In this document: positions 27,255-37,487 of the stretch, in pieces
How the letters are laid out: every line of letters begins with the position of its first letter
Position numbering within the stretch: position 1 is the stretch's first letter
Assembly (NCBI GenBank): GCA_964599275.1
Contig: CAZRFK010000002.1
Coordinates: 95 to 64,094, forward strand
Direction: 5' to 3'
Source of the DNA: an uncultured Clostridia bacterium
Lineage (GTDB): Bacteria; Bacillota; Sulfobacillia; SLMV01
DNA length: 64,000 bases
Notes under the pieces: model-generated
Databases searched by the model: none
What the model saw: the letters and a program-made list of their open reading frames with translations, nothing else
Told to the model about the DNA's origin: nothing
Translations under genes and position numbers: made by a program

Positions 27255-28670
27255 TTGTTGAAGAAATTGCTGGCCGTAGCAATTGGAAAAAGCGTATTGT
27301 CATTACTGCGTTTTTTAAATCGGTCCGCTACAGCCTTTCCTGGTAAATTGGCATTACGCATATTACCAGATCTGATCCAGTGCCTACTTGATTCATCAAA
27401 TTTGAAAACCGTATATATAAGTGGAACCAATGGGAAAAGCACTACCTCTTCGATGATCAAGTCTATCCTTCAAACTTCAAAAATGACTGTTGTATGCAAC
27501 GACAGCGGTGCCAATCTGCTGACGGGAATAGCCACTTCCTTACTTGAAAGCAGTAGTTGGTTGGGAAGATTAGCAGCTGATGTCGTGGTATTGGAAGTTG
27601 ATGAGGCCACCCTGCCGAAAATGATTTTACACTTCGATCCCGATATAATTATCATAACTAATTTCTTTGCTGATCAGTTGGATCGTTTTGGAGAAGTTGA
27701 AAAAACGGTTCATATCGTTCACCGTGCTCTGAAAATGTCTTGTGCAAAAATCTGTTTGAATGCTGACGATCCCTATTCAGCTGGGCTTGCCAGTGAGTTG
27801 TCATCGGCGAATGATCAAATATTTTACGGCATCGAACCGATACCGCAGGGTGCTGAGCTGGAGTGCGAGTGCGCAGAGCGGCACTACTGTGCTTTGTGCG
27901 GTGAATCTCTGATTTACAGATATCGAACCTACGCACATATTGGAAAGTATGAATGTCCCCAATGCAGTTTTTCACGACCTTCACCAGATGCCTGTGCACG
28001 CGTTCTCAATATTGGGACCGATCATTCTGGAATTGAGTTCTCTTTTTCTGATAAGTTACCTCAGTGCCTCCAAGATACAGACCTGTTAACGCAAATCAGA
28101 CTTCCGGGGGTTTACAACATCTACAATGCAGTTGCATCAGCATCAGCAGCCGCCTTGTTGGAGGTTGCTCCAGATTTCATAGATCGTGGGTTATCCGAAT
28201 TTGAGGGTGTTTTCGGAAGGTGGGAAAAATTCTATATTGAGGGGGTTCAACTGGAGATTACCCTCGTAAAAAATCCAGTGGGTTTAAATCAGGTTATGCG
28301 CTCAGTACAACGAAGAGAAGGTGCAAAGGTGATGTTTTTGGCCCTGAATGATAAAGCGGCTGATGGCAGGGATATTTCTTGGATTTGGGATGTTAACTTT
28401 GAGGAGACTACTCTCATTGAATGTTCTGATGTACACTTTGTCGTTGCTGGCACCAGGGCCGACGATCTGGCGGTAAGATTGAAATATGCGGGTCTTGATG
28501 AACACAGATTGACAGTTGAATCTGATTTGGTAAAAGCCCTGGATGCTTGCTGCCGGAAATCCCAGCAAGAAGATGCTGTGATTTATTCCCTACCCAATTA
28601 TTCGGCCATGTGGAAATTGAGGCGAGAAATACTGCGAAGAGTCGAAATTGAGGAGGCAGCTGGGGTATGA
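27255..28670 (+). CDS. murT: lipid II isoglutaminyl synthase subunit MurT (Mur-ligase domain + Cys4 ribbon + DUF1727)
   Basis: ISGTNGKSTTSSMI P-loop, NFFADQLDRFGE, LNADDP, CxxC..(17)..CxxC ribbon, C-terminal DUF1727 LNDKAADGRDISWIWD, close to S. aureus MurT; TTG 27255 is 8 nt after AAGGAG. Confidence 0.85.
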   Translation: MLKKLLAVAIGKSVLSLLRFLNRSATAFPGKLALRILPDLIQCLLDSSNLKTVYISGTNGKSTTSSMIKSILQTSKMTVVCNDSGANLLTGIATSLLESSSWLGRLAADVVVLEVDEATLPKMILHFDPDIIIITNFFADQLDRFGEVEKTVHIVHRALKMSCAKICLNADDPYSAGLASELSSANDQIFYGIEPIPQGAELECECAERHYCALCGESLIYRYRTYAHIGKYECPQCSFSRPSPDACARVLNIGTDHSGIEFSFSDKLPQCLQDTDLLTQIRLPGVYNIYNAVASASAAALLEVAPDFIDRGLSEFEGVFGRWEKFYIEGVQLEITLVKNPVGLNQVMRSVQRREGAKVMFLALNDKAADGRDISWIWDVNFEETTLIECSDVHFVVAGTRADDLAVRLKYAGLDEHRLTVESDLVKALDACCRKSQQEDAVIYSLPNYSAMWKLRREILRRVEIEEAAGV

Positions 28671-30862: not shown

Positions 30863-30963
30863 TATTCGTGTGTGTCCGGCGGTCCTTTGCGAGTATCTTG
30901 TCCAGCGTTGAAGCTGGCTTAATATAAATTACTGATCGACATCACTTTGGAGGTGCATTGGTA

Positions 30964-31875
30964 ATGCGAAGTTGCGAGGTTCTCATAGTAGGTGCGGGTC
31001 CTGCTGGATTGACTACTGCCATATATACCGGTCGGTCCGGTCGTGACACTATTGTACTGGAAAAGGAAGTGCCCGGTGGGCTTGTTGCCACAACAGACGA
31101 AATAGAAAACTACCCCGGATTTCTGAACATTGGAGGGGCTGAGCTCAGTCAGCAATTTGTTCAACACGCCCAGCAGTTTGGTGCGGAGATAATCTCGGAT
31201 GCAGCGGAATCTATCAGAGAAGATGGCGATCACCAGGTGATTGTTGGGAAGAAGGACACATACCGCGCCCGTGCTGTGGTTATTGCTTCTGGCTCTGCTC
31301 CCAGGAAACTGAACGTTCCAGGAGAGGAACGGCTGGTAGGTAGTGGGGTATCTTACTGTGCCACCTGTGACGGAGCCTTTTTTGAGGGACGCGAGGTTGC
31401 ATGTGTTGGTGGAGGAGATGCAGCTGTGGGTGAGGCTGCTTATTTAACCCGTTTTGCCAACCGGGTTCACCTCATTCACCGCAGAGATCAGCTGCGGGCA
31501 GTGCAGGCAGTCCAGGAGCGCGTAATGAACAACGACAATGTGGATTTTGTTTGGAACACAGTTGTTGAGGAAATTATCGGGGATGCTATGGTTGAGGGTC
31601 TCAAATTGCGCGATGTGAAAACAGATGAAACAAGGATTCTGCCTGTCGATGGGGTCTTTATCTACATAGGTCATCGTCCTGCCACCGAATTTGTTGAAGG
31701 CGAGGTAGATTTAACTGAACAGGGTGAAGTGATAACTGATTCTGAAATGCAGACCAGTGTACCGGGGGTTTTTGCAGTGGGTGATGTTCGTCCGCGGATC
31801 CAAAAACAGATAGCCACATCAGTAGGAGATGGTGCTACAGCAGGAATGTCGATCGAACACTACCTGAGTGACTGA
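30964..31875 (+). CDS. trxB: thioredoxin-disulfide reductase
   Basis: GAGPAG FAD motif, redox-active CATC, GGGDAA NADPH motif; alternative TTG start at 30958. Confidence 0.88.
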   Translation: MRSCEVLIVGAGPAGLTTAIYTGRSGRDTIVLEKEVPGGLVATTDEIENYPGFLNIGGAELSQQFVQHAQQFGAEIISDAAESIREDGDHQVIVGKKDTYRARAVVIASGSAPRKLNVPGEERLVGSGVSYCATCDGAFFEGREVACVGGGDAAVGEAAYLTRFANRVHLIHRRDQLRAVQAVQERVMNNDNVDFVWNTVVEEIIGDAMVEGLKLRDVKTDETRILPVDGVFIYIGHRPATEFVEGEVDLTEQGEVITDSEMQTSVPGVFAVGDVRPRIQKQIATSVGDGATAGMSIEHYLSD

Positions 31876-32011
31876 AGCTGACCATAATAGGTGGAGGATA
31901 ATCCATTAACCATGATATACTATAACCTGTAACATGGTATGTGGCATGAGTTGCTTGTCTGTTTTTACTGTAGCATTAAAAGGTAACGTTTGATGGTGAG
32001 GAGATAAATGC

Positions 32012-32515
32012 ATGGAGTTTGTGGGGGTTATCTCATATATTCAGGTCGGGGCCTTCCTTTTTCTCTTCGCTTATCTGGGGATAGGTTTATATCAGGTTAG
32101 ACTGGATAAGAAGGTTTGCGATTTGATGCAGGCAGAGGTCGAACTTCCTGATGGCGAAGAGGAGAACCAGGTATACAGTCATGGGAGAAGGGGGCAACCC
32201 AGTCTGGGTTTTGCTACTGAATGGGAAATGCTTTCCTGGGAAGAAAAAATTAGATATCAGAAGTTGGAAAATAAGCTTAACCGGGCAGCAGCTGTTGCCG
32301 GGTCGCTGGCATTTTTGACTGGATTCACCTGGACCTACATCGAGGTGCAGGTTGGTGCAGATGGGGGACTACCACAGGGATGGCTTATCCTTTTTTCGTT
32401 GTTATTCTTGATTGGACTGGGTATTTTATTTTGGAGTTACTATAGTAGATGGTTGGCTAAAAAGGAAGACTATCTTGATGTAAAGAGGCGGCTTGAGCGA
32501 AGGAGACGCGGTTGA
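32012..32515 (+). CDS. hypothetical membrane protein
   Basis: 167-aa ORF with GGTGAGGAG RBS and several hydrophobic segments. Confidence 0.4.
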   Translation: MEFVGVISYIQVGAFLFLFAYLGIGLYQVRLDKKVCDLMQAEVELPDGEEENQVYSHGRRGQPSLGFATEWEMLSWEEKIRYQKLENKLNRAAAVAGSLAFLTGFTWTYIEVQVGADGGLPQGWLILFSLLFLIGLGILFWSYYSRWLAKKEDYLDVKRRLERRRRG

Positions 32516-32706
32516 AGATTGCAACTAACAGGTTTTCGTGGTCAGAAGCAATATAAGTGATTTATGACAACAGGCTCTTCAGGTGTTATTCTCCGTATTC
32601 TGCCTCATCTTGGCTTTTTGAGTTTCCTGTTTACACGGATGTAAGCTCAGCAAAAACCGACATCGTCTTTCAGCTATGTTTACCAACTTGTTCGCGGAGG
32701 GATAGG

Positions 32707-33624
32707 GTGAAAGGGGTAAAAGACAGTTCGCAGATTATCTCAAAGCTGCATGAAATTGATGGGCGTGGATATGGAGCCTACAAGATTATTAGCGGGAAAT
32801 ACCGCGTGCAGGAATTCAAACTATCCATAGATTATGTTCAGGGCGATCCTTAAGCATCTCCGTCAAAGCTGCGTACCTGGACATGGAGAAGGCAGGTTTT
32901 TCTTCTGAAATGTTCAGAAATTTGGAGCGGAAGATAGGTCTGGAGAATTATCTGTTAAGGGCGTTCGACTGGTTCATTGACAGAGAAGTAAAGGGACATC
33001 GTCAGCGAAAATCGGATTGGTGGGAGTCGACTCTCCTGGACAGGATATCTTATCCAGAACTGCTGTTGAGGCATCTACACAGGAGATACAAGTTCGATTG
33101 GTGGCTGGTCAACCAGCCAAGGGAGGACGTGTTCTGGGTTCTCAGGCCGAGAAAATGCTGGTTGAAGAAATTCCAACCGTTGCCCGCCGAGCTATGAAAC
33201 ATGACAGTCTGGATGCTGATAACCTCTGGCGGTTCGTTCTCAACAGAGAAAATTCTGCTGATTTACGTCATCGCCTTGGCAGCCGTAAGGCTGTGACATT
33301 TATTGCTGATGGAGCCGATTGCTGTTGGTGGATGAGGATACAAGTGTAACCAATTTCATGATCAGGGACATGCGGATGCAGCAGCTGGTTAGTGGGGACA
33401 AGGAACTCATCATTCCTTTCATTGATCGAGTAAGACAGTTGTACAGGGAGAAAGGGATCTCAACCATCCTGGTAGTAGGTGGCTCTGGTGGTTACTTCGA
33501 TGTGGGGAACAATGTCATAATGATGGATCATTATCGTCCCCGGGATGTGACTGAAAAGGCACATAAAGTAGCGGAAAAATATCCTTCCGGCCGCCAGAAG
33601 GGAAGGAATCCCGGGAACCGTTAG
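32707..33624 (+). pseudogene. decayed gene for ABC-class ATPase (PF09818/COG3044-like): in-frame TAA after VQGDP plus >=3 frameshifts; remnant may extend to ~34023
   Basis: GTG 32707 after GGAGG gives ..LHEIDGRGYGAYK..IDYVQGDP*ASPSKLR (family has GDPFA.PSR.RV); downstream pieces in other frames carry GRVLGSQAE and LLVDEDTSVTNFMIRD.RMQ.LV; frames run 1 to 0 to 2 to 1. Confidence 0.55.
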
Positions 33625-34029
33625 GTGAGATCGCAGACAGCTCCCCCGATCCGGACAGTATTGATCCCCGGCGGAAAGGGGAGGTTCGAATTAGGACAGG
33701 GGGATCAGCACGATCCAATTTGGTCATCAAAACATAGAACTTCATCAGGTGGAACAGCTTATCGATGTCAGTAGACTCGAGCGATCGGTCAAATTTTGTA
33801 GTTCATGAAAAAATATTTTCCAGATTACCCTCAGGGAGGCGCTTTGCCGCGTCAAACAGGATATATTGATGGGGAAGGACTTGACATAATATCTCCCTTT
33901 GAGGGGTACTCTGGAGGTTTTGCCCGTCCACGTATGGTGGGGGTGGCGGCAGCCCTGAACAGACTTCGAACATTACGGTTGCATTCTGAAACTAAAAAAC
34001 AACTGATTTGGGGGAGAGACTGAGGTTCA

Positions 34030-34767
34030 ATGGCACAGCAGAACTGGGTTCGGGTGGCGGTAAGGAAAACTTCAAAAGCAGGAGTTTCGGCAAGCGGGGA
34101 TAGCGTGGATGTAGTTGAACGAGCCCGCGGGGGACTTTCCGTGATCATGGCGGATGGGCAGGGCAGTGGGCCTGCTGCGAAGCGAATAAGTAACTGGGTG
34201 GTGGCTCGTGCTGCAGCGCTGATCGCTGAGGGAGCCAGGGATGGAGCCGTTGCCCGGGCTGTTCACGACAATTTACTCGCTCTTCGTGGAGGCAAAATCG
34301 TCTGCACGCTCGCTATTATGTCTGTAGATCTCAACACCAATAGCCTGGTTATCTCGCGCAACGGAAACTCGGGAGCTTTGATTTTCGAACGGGGCGGACT
34401 GCCAAGGTGTCTCGATGAGGAAGTCCCTCCAATAGGGGTTCATCAGTTTACCAAGCCTGCAATTTTGGAAAAACGTCTGCATCCTGGTGATTGTGCGGCT
34501 ATCTTTACTGATGGTATATGCAGGATACAGGACGATGGAGGCAGCCTGGAGCTGGACATGCTGAAAGAGCAGATGATTGGTGCGGTTCAGGAGCATCCAC
34601 CTCCGAGTGTTGAGACATTTGCTGATAGTGTATTTACCTCGGCCCTGCAGGCTGATGGAGGTAGACCTAAAGATGATATGTCCCTGGCAGCCATAACGGT
34701 CGAGGCGAGGGGAAAACAGCTTGGGGAAGCAGCCGTTCGTTCGATTGATCTGAAGTTTCCTTATTGA
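34030..34767 (+). CDS. compact PP2C-family Ser/Thr phosphatase (SpoIIE-like domain only)
   Basis: MADGQGSGPAA metal-binding motif, DG..R.. block and C-terminal DDMSLAAITV typical of PP2C/SpoIIE-domain phosphatases; 245 aa. Confidence 0.68.
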   Translation: MAQQNWVRVAVRKTSKAGVSASGDSVDVVERARGGLSVIMADGQGSGPAAKRISNWVVARAAALIAEGARDGAVARAVHDNLLALRGGKIVCTLAIMSVDLNTNSLVISRNGNSGALIFERGGLPRCLDEEVPPIGVHQFTKPAILEKRLHPGDCAAIFTDGICRIQDDGGSLELDMLKEQMIGAVQEHPPPSVETFADSVFTSALQADGGRPKDDMSLAAITVEARGKQLGEAAVRSIDLKFPY

Positions 34768-34795
34768 TACTCATTGACTCGAAAGGAGTATCTTT

Positions 34796-35149
34796 ATGGA
34801 CAAATCCCCCCGGATAGTGGTAGTGGGATGCTGCGCTTCCGGCAAGAGTACTCTGGTGAAAAATCTTCGGAAGGCGGATATTCCAGCGTTTTCTGTGGCT
34901 CAGGAACACTCTTCTGTGTCCTACATGTTTCGTCTGCGAGACCCGGACTTTGTGGTTTTCCTTGACGCCAGCTATGAAGAGCTGAGACGACGTAGGGACA
35001 TTTCATGGGGGAAAGATCGCCTGCAGGATCAAAAAAGACGCCTTGCCAAGGCCAAACATGTGGCTGATATTCATATTAACACTGACCAGATGACTCCCGG
35101 GCAGGTTTCAGATCTGGTACTTAAATTGTTAGAAGAGAATGAAAGTTGA
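34796..35149 (+). CDS. 117-aa mini P-loop NTPase (nucleotide-kinase-like fold)
   Basis: Walker A GCCASGKST at residues 11-19, hydrophobic-Asp Walker-B-like VVFLDAS; AAAGGAG RBS. Confidence 0.5.
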   Translation: MDKSPRIVVVGCCASGKSTLVKNLRKADIPAFSVAQEHSSVSYMFRLRDPDFVVFLDASYEELRRRRDISWGKDRLQDQKRRLAKAKHVADIHINTDQMTPGQVSDLVLKLLEENES

Positions 35150-35283
35150 TTTAGTCAGCTGAACTGCACGGATGTGGAAGAAGGCATTGTTGCATCAAAC
35201 TGGAAAGTGATATGGAGTGAAGGGTAGCTATTTACTAAGTTGACATATTGCAGTTATAATTTGATGCGTGTTGTGTTGAATAA

Positions 35284-36552
35284 ATGACGAAAGGGGTAGA
35301 CAGCTTGCGACGCAAACGACGCACTCATCTTATGAGGTTTATCGCACTGATGGTGGTCGTTGTGGCCGTCGGGGGGTATTTTGGGTTTTATTCTCCCGTG
35401 TGGGATGACATTAATAAAGGTCTGGATCTCGTTGGAGGGATCCACATAGTTCTGGAAGCCCAGGATACCGAGACCACCCCGGTCACCGAAGAGGGTATGA
35501 CTTCAGCTGTAGAGGTAATCCGGCGCCGTGTCGATGCCATGGGGGTAGTTGAGCCTGTCATTGTGCGGGAAGGTGATCGCCGTATAGTGGTGAGCCTGCC
35601 CGATGTTCATGATCCAGAAGAGGCCATGGCAATGGTAGGACGCACTGCCCAACTTGAATTTCGCGATGACGACGGCAATGTTGTTCTGACCGGACGCCAC
35701 CTGGAGCGGGCACAGGCCGTTTTTCAGACGACTGAGATGGGAGCACAGGAACCCATTGTAAGTCTTGAATTTGATGCTGAGGGAACAGAAATACTTGCTG
35801 AAGCAACAGAGGAGCTTCTGGGAGAACGAATGGTCATATACCTGGATGATGAAGTGGTTCAGGCCCCGGTGGTTCGCTCCGTTATAACGGATGGTAGTCC
35901 CATAATTGAAGGTTATGATTCTTTAGAGGAAGCTCAGGAGATAGCTGTAGTTCTGAATTCTGGTGCACTGCCGATAGAACTGGAGCCGCTTCGGCCGCAG
36001 TATATCAGTGCCATGCTTGGAGAAGCATCTGTGCAGCAGAGCTGGCAGGCTGCGATAATAGCCATCACTGCCATAATTTCGTTGATGATTCTGTTTTACC
36101 GCGTACCGGGTATCTGGGCTGTGTTTTCTCTGGGATTATATCTGACATTAGTCCTTCTGATTATGGCTGGAATAAATGCCACAATGACCCTTCCCGGTCT
36201 GGCAGGGTTGATTCTGTCACTGGGTATGGCGGTTGATGCCAATGTAATTATTTTTGAAAGAATAAAAGAAGAAGTCCGGGCAGGAGCTACACCGCGAGCG
36301 GCTATCGAAAGCGGTTTTGCCAATGCTTTCAGGACTATTGTTGACGCTGATGTAACTACATTGATAGCTGGAGTTGTACTGTATTGGTTGGCTACAGGTC
36401 CGATCCGGGGATTCGCTGTTACGCTGTCGCTGGGTATATTAACCAGTATGTTTACTGCCCTGGTAATTACCCGCCTGGCGCTCATTGAGTTGGCGGGAGC
36501 CGGATTGATACGTGAAGGCTCACTGTTTTTCGGCTCGAGGGGAGGACAGTAA
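35284..36552 (+). CDS. secD: protein translocase subunit SecD
   Basis: GLDLVGG periplasmic-domain start, C-terminal 6-TM RND-like block; alternative start ATG 35332. Confidence 0.9.
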   Translation: MTKGVDSLRRKRRTHLMRFIALMVVVVAVGGYFGFYSPVWDDINKGLDLVGGIHIVLEAQDTETTPVTEEGMTSAVEVIRRRVDAMGVVEPVIVREGDRRIVVSLPDVHDPEEAMAMVGRTAQLEFRDDDGNVVLTGRHLERAQAVFQTTEMGAQEPIVSLEFDAEGTEILAEATEELLGERMVIYLDDEVVQAPVVRSVITDGSPIIEGYDSLEEAQEIAVVLNSGALPIELEPLRPQYISAMLGEASVQQSWQAAIIAITAIISLMILFYRVPGIWAVFSLGLYLTLVLLIMAGINATMTLPGLAGLILSLGMAVDANVIIFERIKEEVRAGATPRAAIESGFANAFRTIVDADVTTLIAGVVLYWLATGPIRGFAVTLSLGILTSMFTALVITRLALIELAGAGLIREGSLFFGSRGGQ

Positions 36553-37487
36553 TGTCGCAAGGAAACGAACGGCAACGAGATGAACACAAACTGCTGATGA
36601 ATGACTTTAGCTTCATTGATAAGCGCAATATAACATTTATTATATCTGGCCTGCTGATTGTGATAGGGCTGCTTAGCCTCGGGATTCAGGGCCTCAACCT
36701 GGGAGTTGATTTTACCGGTGGGTCGATCCTGGAAGTGCAGTACGATCAGCCAGTGGAGGCTTCTGCGGTCGAGTCTGTGGTGAGAGAGCACCCAGATATG
36801 CAGCGGGCAGAGGCGGTCCACCTGGGGGAACCCGATTCTCCCATTATAAGGATAAGATCTACTGCTTTTCCTGATGAGGAGGAACGAGAGGAACTTTACG
36901 CCGATTTACAGCAATTCGGGGAGTTTGAAATCGTCCAGTTGGATAGCGTTTCTCCGGTAATTGGCGAAGAGCTGTTTCGAGCCGGGCTTTTAGCTCTTGT
37001 TATTGCTGTACTGGCCATGGTCCTTTACATTACGCTGCGGTTTGAGATCAGATTTGCAGTGGTAACCATTGTTTGCTTGCTGCATGACGCCTTGATAATG
37101 CTGGGCTTGTTTTCTCTTTTCAGACTGGAAATTACCAGTGCATTTATTGCTGCGATCCTGACCATCATTGGTTATTCGGCAAACGACACTATTGTGGTTT
37201 TTGACCGGATTCGAGAGAACCTCAGGTACCGTAAGAAGGGCGAATCATTGATTGAAACTATTGATGATAGCATCAGACAGGTGTTGATGCGTACACTGGC
37301 AACCTCGGTAACTACTTTTGTGGCGGTCGGTTCCATTTTCGTGTTCGGTGGACAAAACCTGCGACAGTTCACTTTAGCCTTGCTGTTTGGTGTTGTGATT
37401 GGTACGTATTCATCAATTTTCTTTGCCAGCCCGCTATGGTCGCTGTGGCAGGAAAAGAATCCAATTCAGACGATTTCGCGAATCTAA
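36552..37487 (+). CDS. secF: protein translocase subunit SecF
   Basis: Start overlaps secD stop; GVDFTGGS motif and 6 TM helices. Confidence 0.9.
   Translation: MSQGNERQRDEHKLLMNDFSFIDKRNITFIISGLLIVIGLLSLGIQGLNLGVDFTGGSILEVQYDQPVEASAVESVVREHPDMQRAEAVHLGEPDSPIIRIRSTAFPDEEEREELYADLQQFGEFEIVQLDSVSPVIGEELFRAGLLALVIAVLAMVLYITLRFEIRFAVVTIVCLLHDALIMLGLFSLFRLEITSAFIAAILTIIGYSANDTIVVFDRIRENLRYRKKGESLIETIDDSIRQVLMRTLATSVTTFVAVGSIFVFGGQNLRQFTLALLFGVVIGTYSSIFFASPLWSLWQEKNPIQTISRI

Follow-up and report, generated by a model that had tools for sequence, protein, structure and literature searches.

Do two small genes that lie ahead of secD in an uncultured Clostridia bacterium represent the debris of a larger signalling module, or are they a unit in their own right? 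The window in which they were found (the whole stretch of DNA that was analysed, 64,000 nucleotides (nt) of contig CAZRFK010000002.1 in assembly GCA_964599275.1; Bacillota, Sulfobacillia) encodes a phosphatase of the PP2C family and, directly downstream on the same strand, a protein of 117 amino acids (aa) with a P-loop. An initial annotation, made from the sequence without database searches, had read these genes together with a decayed ATPase gene upstream as a possible remnant of a nucleotide-dependent signalling module. Both open reading frames (ORFs) exist as it described them, with the coordinates and motifs that it gave: the ORF list has MADGQGSGPAA and DDMSLAAITV in the phosphatase and GCCASGKST and VVFLDAS in the P-loop protein. 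The distance between the genes, which it put at 29 nt, is a spacer of 28 nt.

Linkage of the two genes was surveyed from either side. The P-loop-seeded survey took one genome per species and used the best 80 of 531 or more matches, about half of them from Bacillota and half from Chloroflexota. The second survey was seeded with a PP2C motif in metagenome contigs, and the loci counted were those with 1.5 kb or more of room downstream. A PP2C gene preceded the P-loop gene on the same strand in 67 of the 72 genome loci with room for it and was the adjacent gene in 52, and a P-loop gene was located downstream in 40 of the 42 metagenome loci, 36 times as the adjacent gene. Individual look-ups of PP2C homologues returned the same order, PP2C and then P-loop, in five cases out of five. 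The linkage was complete in Bacillota, with PP2C upstream and secD downstream of the P-loop gene in 35/35 loci each, and looser in Chloroflexota (PP2C upstream in 32/37, secD downstream in 17/31); overall, secD followed the P-loop gene in 52 of the 66 loci with room. When the distance was projected from the PP2C stop codon to position 1 of the P-loop profile, the median was about 35 nt and 65% of the pairs were separated by 60 nt or less, the genes themselves often lying less than 20 nt apart. About 140 linked loci were collected in total, of which 117 had full-length matches, and these gave 84 non-redundant pairs.

The pair also travels with the genes for the SecDF export machinery. When every neighbour within 5 kb in the 80 genomes was clustered without bias, PP2C, the P-loop protein and SecD/SecF were the only families common to both phyla. 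The remaining recurrent neighbours were specific to one phylum, namely tgt, yajC, the 5-formyltetrahydrofolate cyclo-ligase gene, recJ and a gene for an HD-domain protein in Bacillota, and genes for an aminotransferase, HflX, a methyltransferase and an epimerase in Chloroflexota. Over 63 loci the pairwise distances of PP2C, P-loop protein and SecD were correlated with r = 0.92-0.96, and mean divergence was similar (0.43, 0.44 and 0.37, respectively), which indicates co-inheritance of the three under purifying selection. We regard it as practically certain that the two window genes form an intact copy of a unit of two genes, deeply conserved and located near secD-secF in two phyla. The pair is found in at least several hundred species of Bacillota and Chloroflexota, and it is passed on as a block with secD-secF in Chloroflexota and, among Bacillota, in Negativicutes, Limnochordia, Symbiobacteriaceae and some Clostridia. 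The initial annotation had suspected a recurrent and undescribed unit, and in this it is upheld by the linkage counts and by a literature search that returned no description. The pair is not a remnant, as it had also proposed, but a complete conserved core with all catalytic-type residues intact. It had further missed the secD-secF linkage in the two phyla and the HD-domain gene, a third member in some lineages that is absent here.

One variation was seen in many Anaerolineae (loci L012, L017, L026, L032, L035, L052-L055, L069, L078, L079 and L083), where a gene for a membrane protein of about 350 aa with TrkA-N and TrkA-C (RCK) domains separates PP2C from the P-loop gene (for example at L035:4884-5987). 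The inserted gene has the strand of its neighbours, and the pair keeps its order and strand.

The first gene product is readily assigned. The window phosphatase matched Pfam family PF07228 (SpoIIE) over profile positions 3-191 of 192 with E=1.7e-20 and 74.3 bits (cutoff 25). It scored only 65 bits against the SpoIIE equivalog TIGR02865, for which the cutoff is 490.8, and the matched part (model positions 552-757) was the C-terminal phosphatase domain. Since this is far under the score of the full-length SpoIIE model, the window protein is a stand-alone PP2C domain. Homologous sequences formed 720 clusters, nearly all of 230-250 aa. The metal-site aspartates D24, D42, D161 and D215/D216 were invariant in 43 family members and aligned with the SGD, DGMG, SDG and DD motifs of the SpoIIE structure 5mqh; their integrity suggests that the enzyme is catalytically competent. 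The closest solved relative was 3pu9_A (E=1.3e-38 over residues 7-223, with the motifs conserved throughout), compared with about 1e-9 for SpoIIE structures. PDB entry 3PU9, an unpublished structural-genomics deposition of 242 aa named 'protein serine/threonine phosphatase', is, judged from the alignment, a probable orthologue of the phosphatase in the window, and we take its source to be a Chloroflexota species. The entry gives a structure and no functional information, and a literature search for papers that mention 3PU9 found none.

The second gene product was much harder to place. Searches of Pfam and NCBIfam with the 117-aa protein returned generic P-loop matches only, all of them below threshold and limited to the P-loop, and a single-sequence search returned just 18 relatives. 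In three distant Firmicutes, the gene downstream of the PP2C homologue was found to encode a protein of 125-127 aa without a Pfam match, and alignment shows that these proteins are homologous to the window protein. Against the profile of its own family the 117-aa protein scored E=8e-47, and it is therefore not a chance ORF. A profile search returned at least 4107 clusters at 90% identity; those listed were nearly all of 110-145 aa and were annotated as "hypothetical" or with inconsistent automatic kinase names. An exhaustive search of 1.84 billion representatives with a hidden Markov model (HMM) yielded 472 clusters at 50% identity, and 351 of these were below 1e-10. Members measured 113-160 aa in both protein searches, and the idea that the ORF might be a fragment of a longer kinase, which the initial annotation had named as a possible refutation, was rejected on that ground.

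Some longer representatives were encountered among the 472. Two independent ones, P0300 and P0343 (347 and 374 aa), carry the P-loop protein in front of a shared C-terminal domain of about 220 aa without a Pfam match. These two, and P0257, which is described below, were the only ones that seem genuine; the others were mostly heterogeneous and were dropped as informative fusions, the transketolase, beta-helix and MiaA chimeras being probably miscalls.

Residue conservation was computed over 414 distinct members of the P-loop family. The family signature consists of GxCxxGK[ST], an invariant QEHS motif and lid arginines. In the Walker A motif (window GCCASGKS, residues 11-18), G11, G16 and K17 were conserved in 100%, S/T18 in 99% and C13 in 96% of members, and in the QEHS motif (residues 36-39) Q36, H38 and S39 reached 100% and E37 99%. 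Arginines were conserved at positions 66 (99%), 67 (89%) and 82 (95%), and tryptophans at positions 45 (93%) and 71 (86%). R66 and R67 follow the helix formed by residues 60-66 and would occupy the lid position, a role assigned from position only. The window copy retains the listed conserved residues except W45, which is Phe here, and an Asp replaces the 96%-conserved G28. It also has two cysteines in the Walker A loop (GCC, residues 12-13), where the family has one at 96%; the P-loop cysteine may be redox-sensitive. The protein had been described at first as little more than a Walker A motif and a Walker-B-like strand; both are present, but QEHS, R66, R67 and R82 are conserved as well.

Structure prediction, which the initial annotation had named as a check on the 117-aa protein, gave a confident model of a kinase-class P-loop fold. 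In the AlphaFold2 (AF2) model (predicted local distance difference test score 87, predicted template modelling score 0.81) strands are formed by residues 7-11, 31-33, 52-57 and 92-95, and strands 2 and 3 are separated by a lone helix (residues 40-48), with no acceptor-binding domain. Profile comparison returned the N-domain of E. coli RapZ as the only full-length match (92%, E=5e-7, 105 columns), and it was the best full-length match in both sequence and structure. The match to AroK was confined to the P-loop segment (34 columns) and that to Cmk to the C-terminal half; in the AroK alignment, QEHS sits at the start of the substrate-binding segment of shikimate kinase. Because the RapZ match exceeded the partial matches to AroK and Cmk by only a small statistical margin, an assignment of the protein as RapZ-like was dropped. 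A search of the PDB with the family profile gave P-loop-level matches only. The protein is described here, from the model and the profile comparisons, as a stripped-down fold of the shikimate/nucleoside monophosphate (NMP) kinase or RapZ N-domain kind; it comes nearest to the RapZ N-domain and is assigned to no named family.

What the pair might do can be approached from known enzymes. P-loop protein serine kinases exist (HprK/P and PDRP/PpsR), the PP2C phosphatase PrpC removes the HprK-written mark in Mycoplasma, and SpoIIE-family PP2Cs act on phospho-proteins. We propose that the P-loop protein may be a minimal ATP-dependent phosphotransferase, citing the Walker A Lys and Ser, the lid-position Arg and the invariant acidic/polar QEHS cluster, which falls where the acceptor-binding segment starts in shikimate and NMP kinases. 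Because the acceptor-binding domain has been lost, the acceptor site would be open and able to take a macromolecule. The P-loop protein would write a phospho-Ser or phospho-Thr mark and the Mn/Mg-dependent PP2C would erase it. The mark could sit on the P-loop protein itself, most obviously at the invariant Ser39, or on the product of a gene elsewhere. PP2C and P-loop protein would thereby form a self-contained phospho-switch that is co-expressed with the SecDF export machinery. We give this reading as a whole, a conserved core pair acting as a kinase/phosphatase switch, a probability of about 40%; its mechanistic part, in which a small protein kinase writes and the PP2C erases, is a tentative proposal that we place short of even odds.

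Several observations weigh against the proposal. Everything in it beyond gene linkage is inference. From the fold search a protein kinase cannot be distinguished from a small-molecule kinase, profile comparison gave no similarity to E. coli PpsR, and the Walker-B-like D57 is Asp in only 74% of the family and Glu in 13%. The invariant four-residue motif, with W45 and W71, might just as well line a small-molecule pocket, and both the HD-domain neighbour and a fusion of the P-loop protein to GAF and HD-GYP-type domains, taken up below, point to nucleotide chemistry. The main exception to the pairing is a subclade of Chloroflexia (L023, L033, L040, L068 and L077; for example L040:5890-6363) in which the P-loop gene has no adjacent PP2C gene. 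A single ORF of 358 aa that joins PP2C and P-loop protein was seen once, in a metagenome-assembled genome (MAG) of Selenomonas bovis (L049:5290-6366); because the cultured relative S. bovis DSM 23594 has two separate genes that overlap by 4 nt (L065:5261-6369), this fusion is probably an assembly frameshift and not a natural protein. The P-loop proteins of the Chloroflexia subclade are extended N-terminally by a charged stretch of about 40 aa with a coiled-coil appearance (MRGQLEEARRRREAE...), and mutL is usually the gene downstream.

A bolder form of the proposal would make the mini P-loop protein the founder of a new family of minimal protein kinases and, together with PP2C, an ancient phospho-switch, common to the two phyla, that controls or senses SecDF-dependent export. 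What allows it is that, of all other neighbours, secD-secF alone is linked to the pair in Bacillota as well as in Chloroflexota, and that the three proteins co-diverge; we hold it to be very doubtful.

Among the alternatives to the kinase/phosphatase switch, one casts the mini P-loop protein as a kinase for a small metabolite or a nucleotide; the HD protein, where present, would hydrolyse the product, and PP2C would be regulated by this chemistry or simply co-expressed. The invariant QEHS motif with W45, W71, R66 and R82 does look like a defined pocket. Between the P-loop gene and secD, 14 of 80 genome loci and 8 of 31 metagenome loci carry a gene for an HD-domain protein. In close relatives, for instance at L003:9133-9783 and in L090, it encodes about 216 aa, and its product had generic HD/HDIG matches only. 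Furthermore, one P-loop representative of 488 aa (P0257) is fused to a GAF domain and to HD_5, a domain of the HD-GYP type. This was the sole HD fusion among the 472 representatives, however, and the HD gene is patchy, not having been seen in Chloroflexota, in the Selenomonas group or in the window, whereas PP2C is almost always present. The acceptor-binding domain used by small-molecule kinases is absent from the AF2 model, and we know of no established small-molecule substrates for enzymes of the PP2C fold. We consider the metabolite reading unlikely. With regard to the window itself, several of its ATPase-carrying relatives have the HD gene too, and because the window has just a 134-nt gap at the position that the gene occupies in L003 and L090, the gene was either lost or never gained in this lineage.

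A second alternative makes the P-loop protein a non-kinase switch or adaptor that binds ATP or GTP and gates PP2C, or else a substrate of PP2C that is phosphorylated by an unlinked kinase. Stand-alone SpoIIE-family PP2Cs generally need an activating partner, RsbT gates RsbU, and the N-domain of RapZ/YvcJ is a nucleotide-binding module; the tight spacing and near-obligate co-occurrence of the genes suggest a stoichiometric complex, and the RapZ N-domain is the best full-length match of the P-loop protein. That match is only marginally ahead of the partial ones to AroK and Cmk, however. The lid arginines and the cluster around E37 and H38, conserved at 95-100%, are more typical of catalysis than of binding alone. 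We think that a gating or substrate role of this kind, too, is improbable.

The pair could also owe its persistence to synteny without function, the genes being unrelated housekeeping genes held in place by a stable tgt-yajC-secDF-recJ-relA string. Throughout Bacillota tgt, yajC, secD, secF and recJ do occur in the same loci. In Chloroflexota, however, the upstream context is unrelated and has neither tgt nor yajC, and the pair is nevertheless kept there as counted above. Order and strand have survived the TrkA-like insertion in Anaerolineae, and the short gaps between the genes likewise speak for more than shared neighbourhood. We judge passive synteny to be a poor explanation.

There remains the ATPase gene upstream. 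That a relic of it precedes PP2C in the window, as first noted, was borne out: Pfam found fragments of the ABC_N, ABC_ATPase and MRB1590_C domains in three frames, and these fragments were all that was found, with no intact reading frame. A tblastn alignment with the intact L001 orthologue placed residues 20-78 in frame 2, 81-122 in frame 1 and 124-228 in frame 3, followed by residues 371-592, with homology extending over 32698-33981. The gene has thus undergone three frame changes, and at the jump from residue 228 to 371 about 142 codons are gone. The independent assembly L173 had two mismatches and no indels against window positions 31796-35950 and carried the same lesions. Contigs assembled from other samples were likewise collinear with the window (0-2 mismatches, no indels), and one of them spans the whole pseudogene. 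Because independent assemblies have the same structure, the decay is real and not a sequencing artefact. The gene is dispensable in the window lineage, given its frameshifts and the lost codons.

An intact PF09818 gene of 581-596 aa directly precedes PP2C in L001 and L003, at spacings of 4-26 nt, and the gene was also located before PP2C in L010, L089, L090, L094 and L098. Over the surveys, it preceded PP2C in 1 of the 80 P-loop-seeded genome loci and in 3 of the 49 PP2C-seeded metagenome loci with room upstream. All ATPase-positive loci fall among the 20 PP2Cs most similar to that of the window, including all six that share more than 57% identity with it. On this distribution the PF09818 ATPase is best described as a lineage-specific accessory neighbour outside the conserved unit. 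The original reading of ATPase relic, PP2C and P-loop protein as a decaying three-gene signalling module can find support in these nearest relatives, where the ATPase gene immediately precedes PP2C, but it is very improbable, because the ATPase is absent from all the other surveyed loci with room upstream and confined to the clade of the window, while PP2C and a full-length P-loop protein have kept every invariant residue as the ATPase decayed. The window organism has lost both accessories, the PF09818 ATPase and the HD gene, and the core pair is left.

The features of the locus are listed in Table 1.

Table 1. Features of the PP2C/P-loop locus and its flanks, in window coordinates.
Feature	Position	Strand	Basis or remark
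TrxB-like gene with CATC motif, upstream flank	30958-31875		ORF list, annotation
Predicted membrane protein, 167 aa, without family match	32012-32515		Between trxB and the ATPase relic
PF09818 ABC-class ATPase pseudogene (ABC_N / ABC_ATPase / MRB1590_C)	32557-34023	+	Pfam fragments, tblastn
PP2C/PPM phosphatase, SpoIIE/RsbU type, stand-alone, 245 aa (gene 1 of the pair)	34030-34767	+	PF07228
Intergenic spacer, 28 nt, Shine-Dalgarno sequence AAAGGAG at 34782-34788	34768-34795	+	Sequence reading
Mini P-loop kinase-fold protein, 117 aa (gene 2 of the pair)	34796-35149	+	Own-family profile
secD	35284-36552	+	HMM match, synteny with L001 and L003
secF	36552-37487	+	HMM match, synteny with L001 and L003

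The Shine-Dalgarno sequence in the spacer stands 7 nt ahead of the ATG of the P-loop gene. A promoter-like site was found at 35231-35260 in the gap between the P-loop gene and secD (35150-35283), and no terminator-like site was found in that gap. In the closest relative (GCA_003551215), a gene for a Y1 transposase of the IS200/IS605 type lies between the P-loop gene and secD (L001:9332-9745). The position of the predicted membrane protein is occupied in L001 and L003 by ORFs of 168 and 159 aa without Pfam matches, and beyond secF the window continues with a LapA-like gene, recJ and relA. GC skew was positive in every 500-nt interval between positions 28000 and 41000 (0.06-0.33), and the long ORFs are almost all on the forward strand, consistent with a leading-strand housekeeping region.

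No partner-switching, Hanks-kinase or FHA gene had been noticed near the pair at first, and none was found in its syntenic neighbourhood. The annotated neighbourhoods of seven relatives contained no STAS or GHKL-kinase genes, a result limited to these loci, and no STAS, GHKL or Hanks-kinase family recurred near the pair in the 80 genomes. Membership in an anti-phage defence system was considered and rejected: PADLOC defence models gave no match for PP2C, the ATPase or the HD protein, and matches at the P-loop level only for the small protein.

Bacterial Ser/Thr phospho-signalling usually runs through Hanks kinases and PP2Cs, or through partner-switching by a GHKL kinase, a STAS protein and a SpoIIE-type PP2C. 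Here a SpoIIE-type PP2C has as its fixed partner a kinase-fold P-loop protein of roughly 120 aa, and the pair, embedded in the secDF locus, diverges only slightly faster than SecD. Should the P-loop protein prove to be a kinase, few known kinases would be as small, and with PP2C it would constitute a new writer/eraser pair; a functional SecDF link would point to control of protein export by phosphorylation, and a Ser/Thr input into the Sec machinery has not been described. Even on a conservative reading, 3PU9 and thousands of "hypothetical protein" annotations acquire a testable two-gene context. For the window itself the result is modest: its copy of the module is an ordinary one, slightly trimmed by the loss of its lineage's accessory genes.

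The components have known folds; their constant association at secDF, SpoIIE-type PP2C with mini P-loop protein, appears to be undescribed. A search of the literature library available to us found no description of the pair at secDF, nor does the pair feature in a published survey of the ORFs that precede secDF (PMC7897499). Set against RapZ/YvcJ (PF03668), the window protein has 117 aa compared with 284, lacks the C-terminal RNA-binding, phosphofructokinase-like domain and about 45 residues of the N-domain, and falls under the PF03668 threshold in Pfam. The genetic context differs as well, rapZ being part of the rpoN/ptsN operon and yvcJ a neighbour of glmR and whiA. Compared with shikimate kinase and the NMP kinases (AroK, Cmk, Adk), the P-loop protein is without the acceptor-binding domain, and no curated family scores above threshold. 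HprK/P with PrpC in Mycoplasma, and PDRP/PpsR, would be the nearest functional parallels to the proposed kinase, but neither an HPr nor a PEP-synthase context is present at this locus. With SpoIIE, RsbU and RsbX (PF07228) the window PP2C shares the catalytic domain and the four metal motifs (SGD, DGxG, TDG and DD), and, as in RsbX, the domain of about 240 aa stands alone. It differs from the modules of those phosphatases in its linkage: none of the surveyed lineages has a linked gene for a STAS antagonist or a GHKL anti-sigma kinase, and the partner is invariably the P-loop protein.

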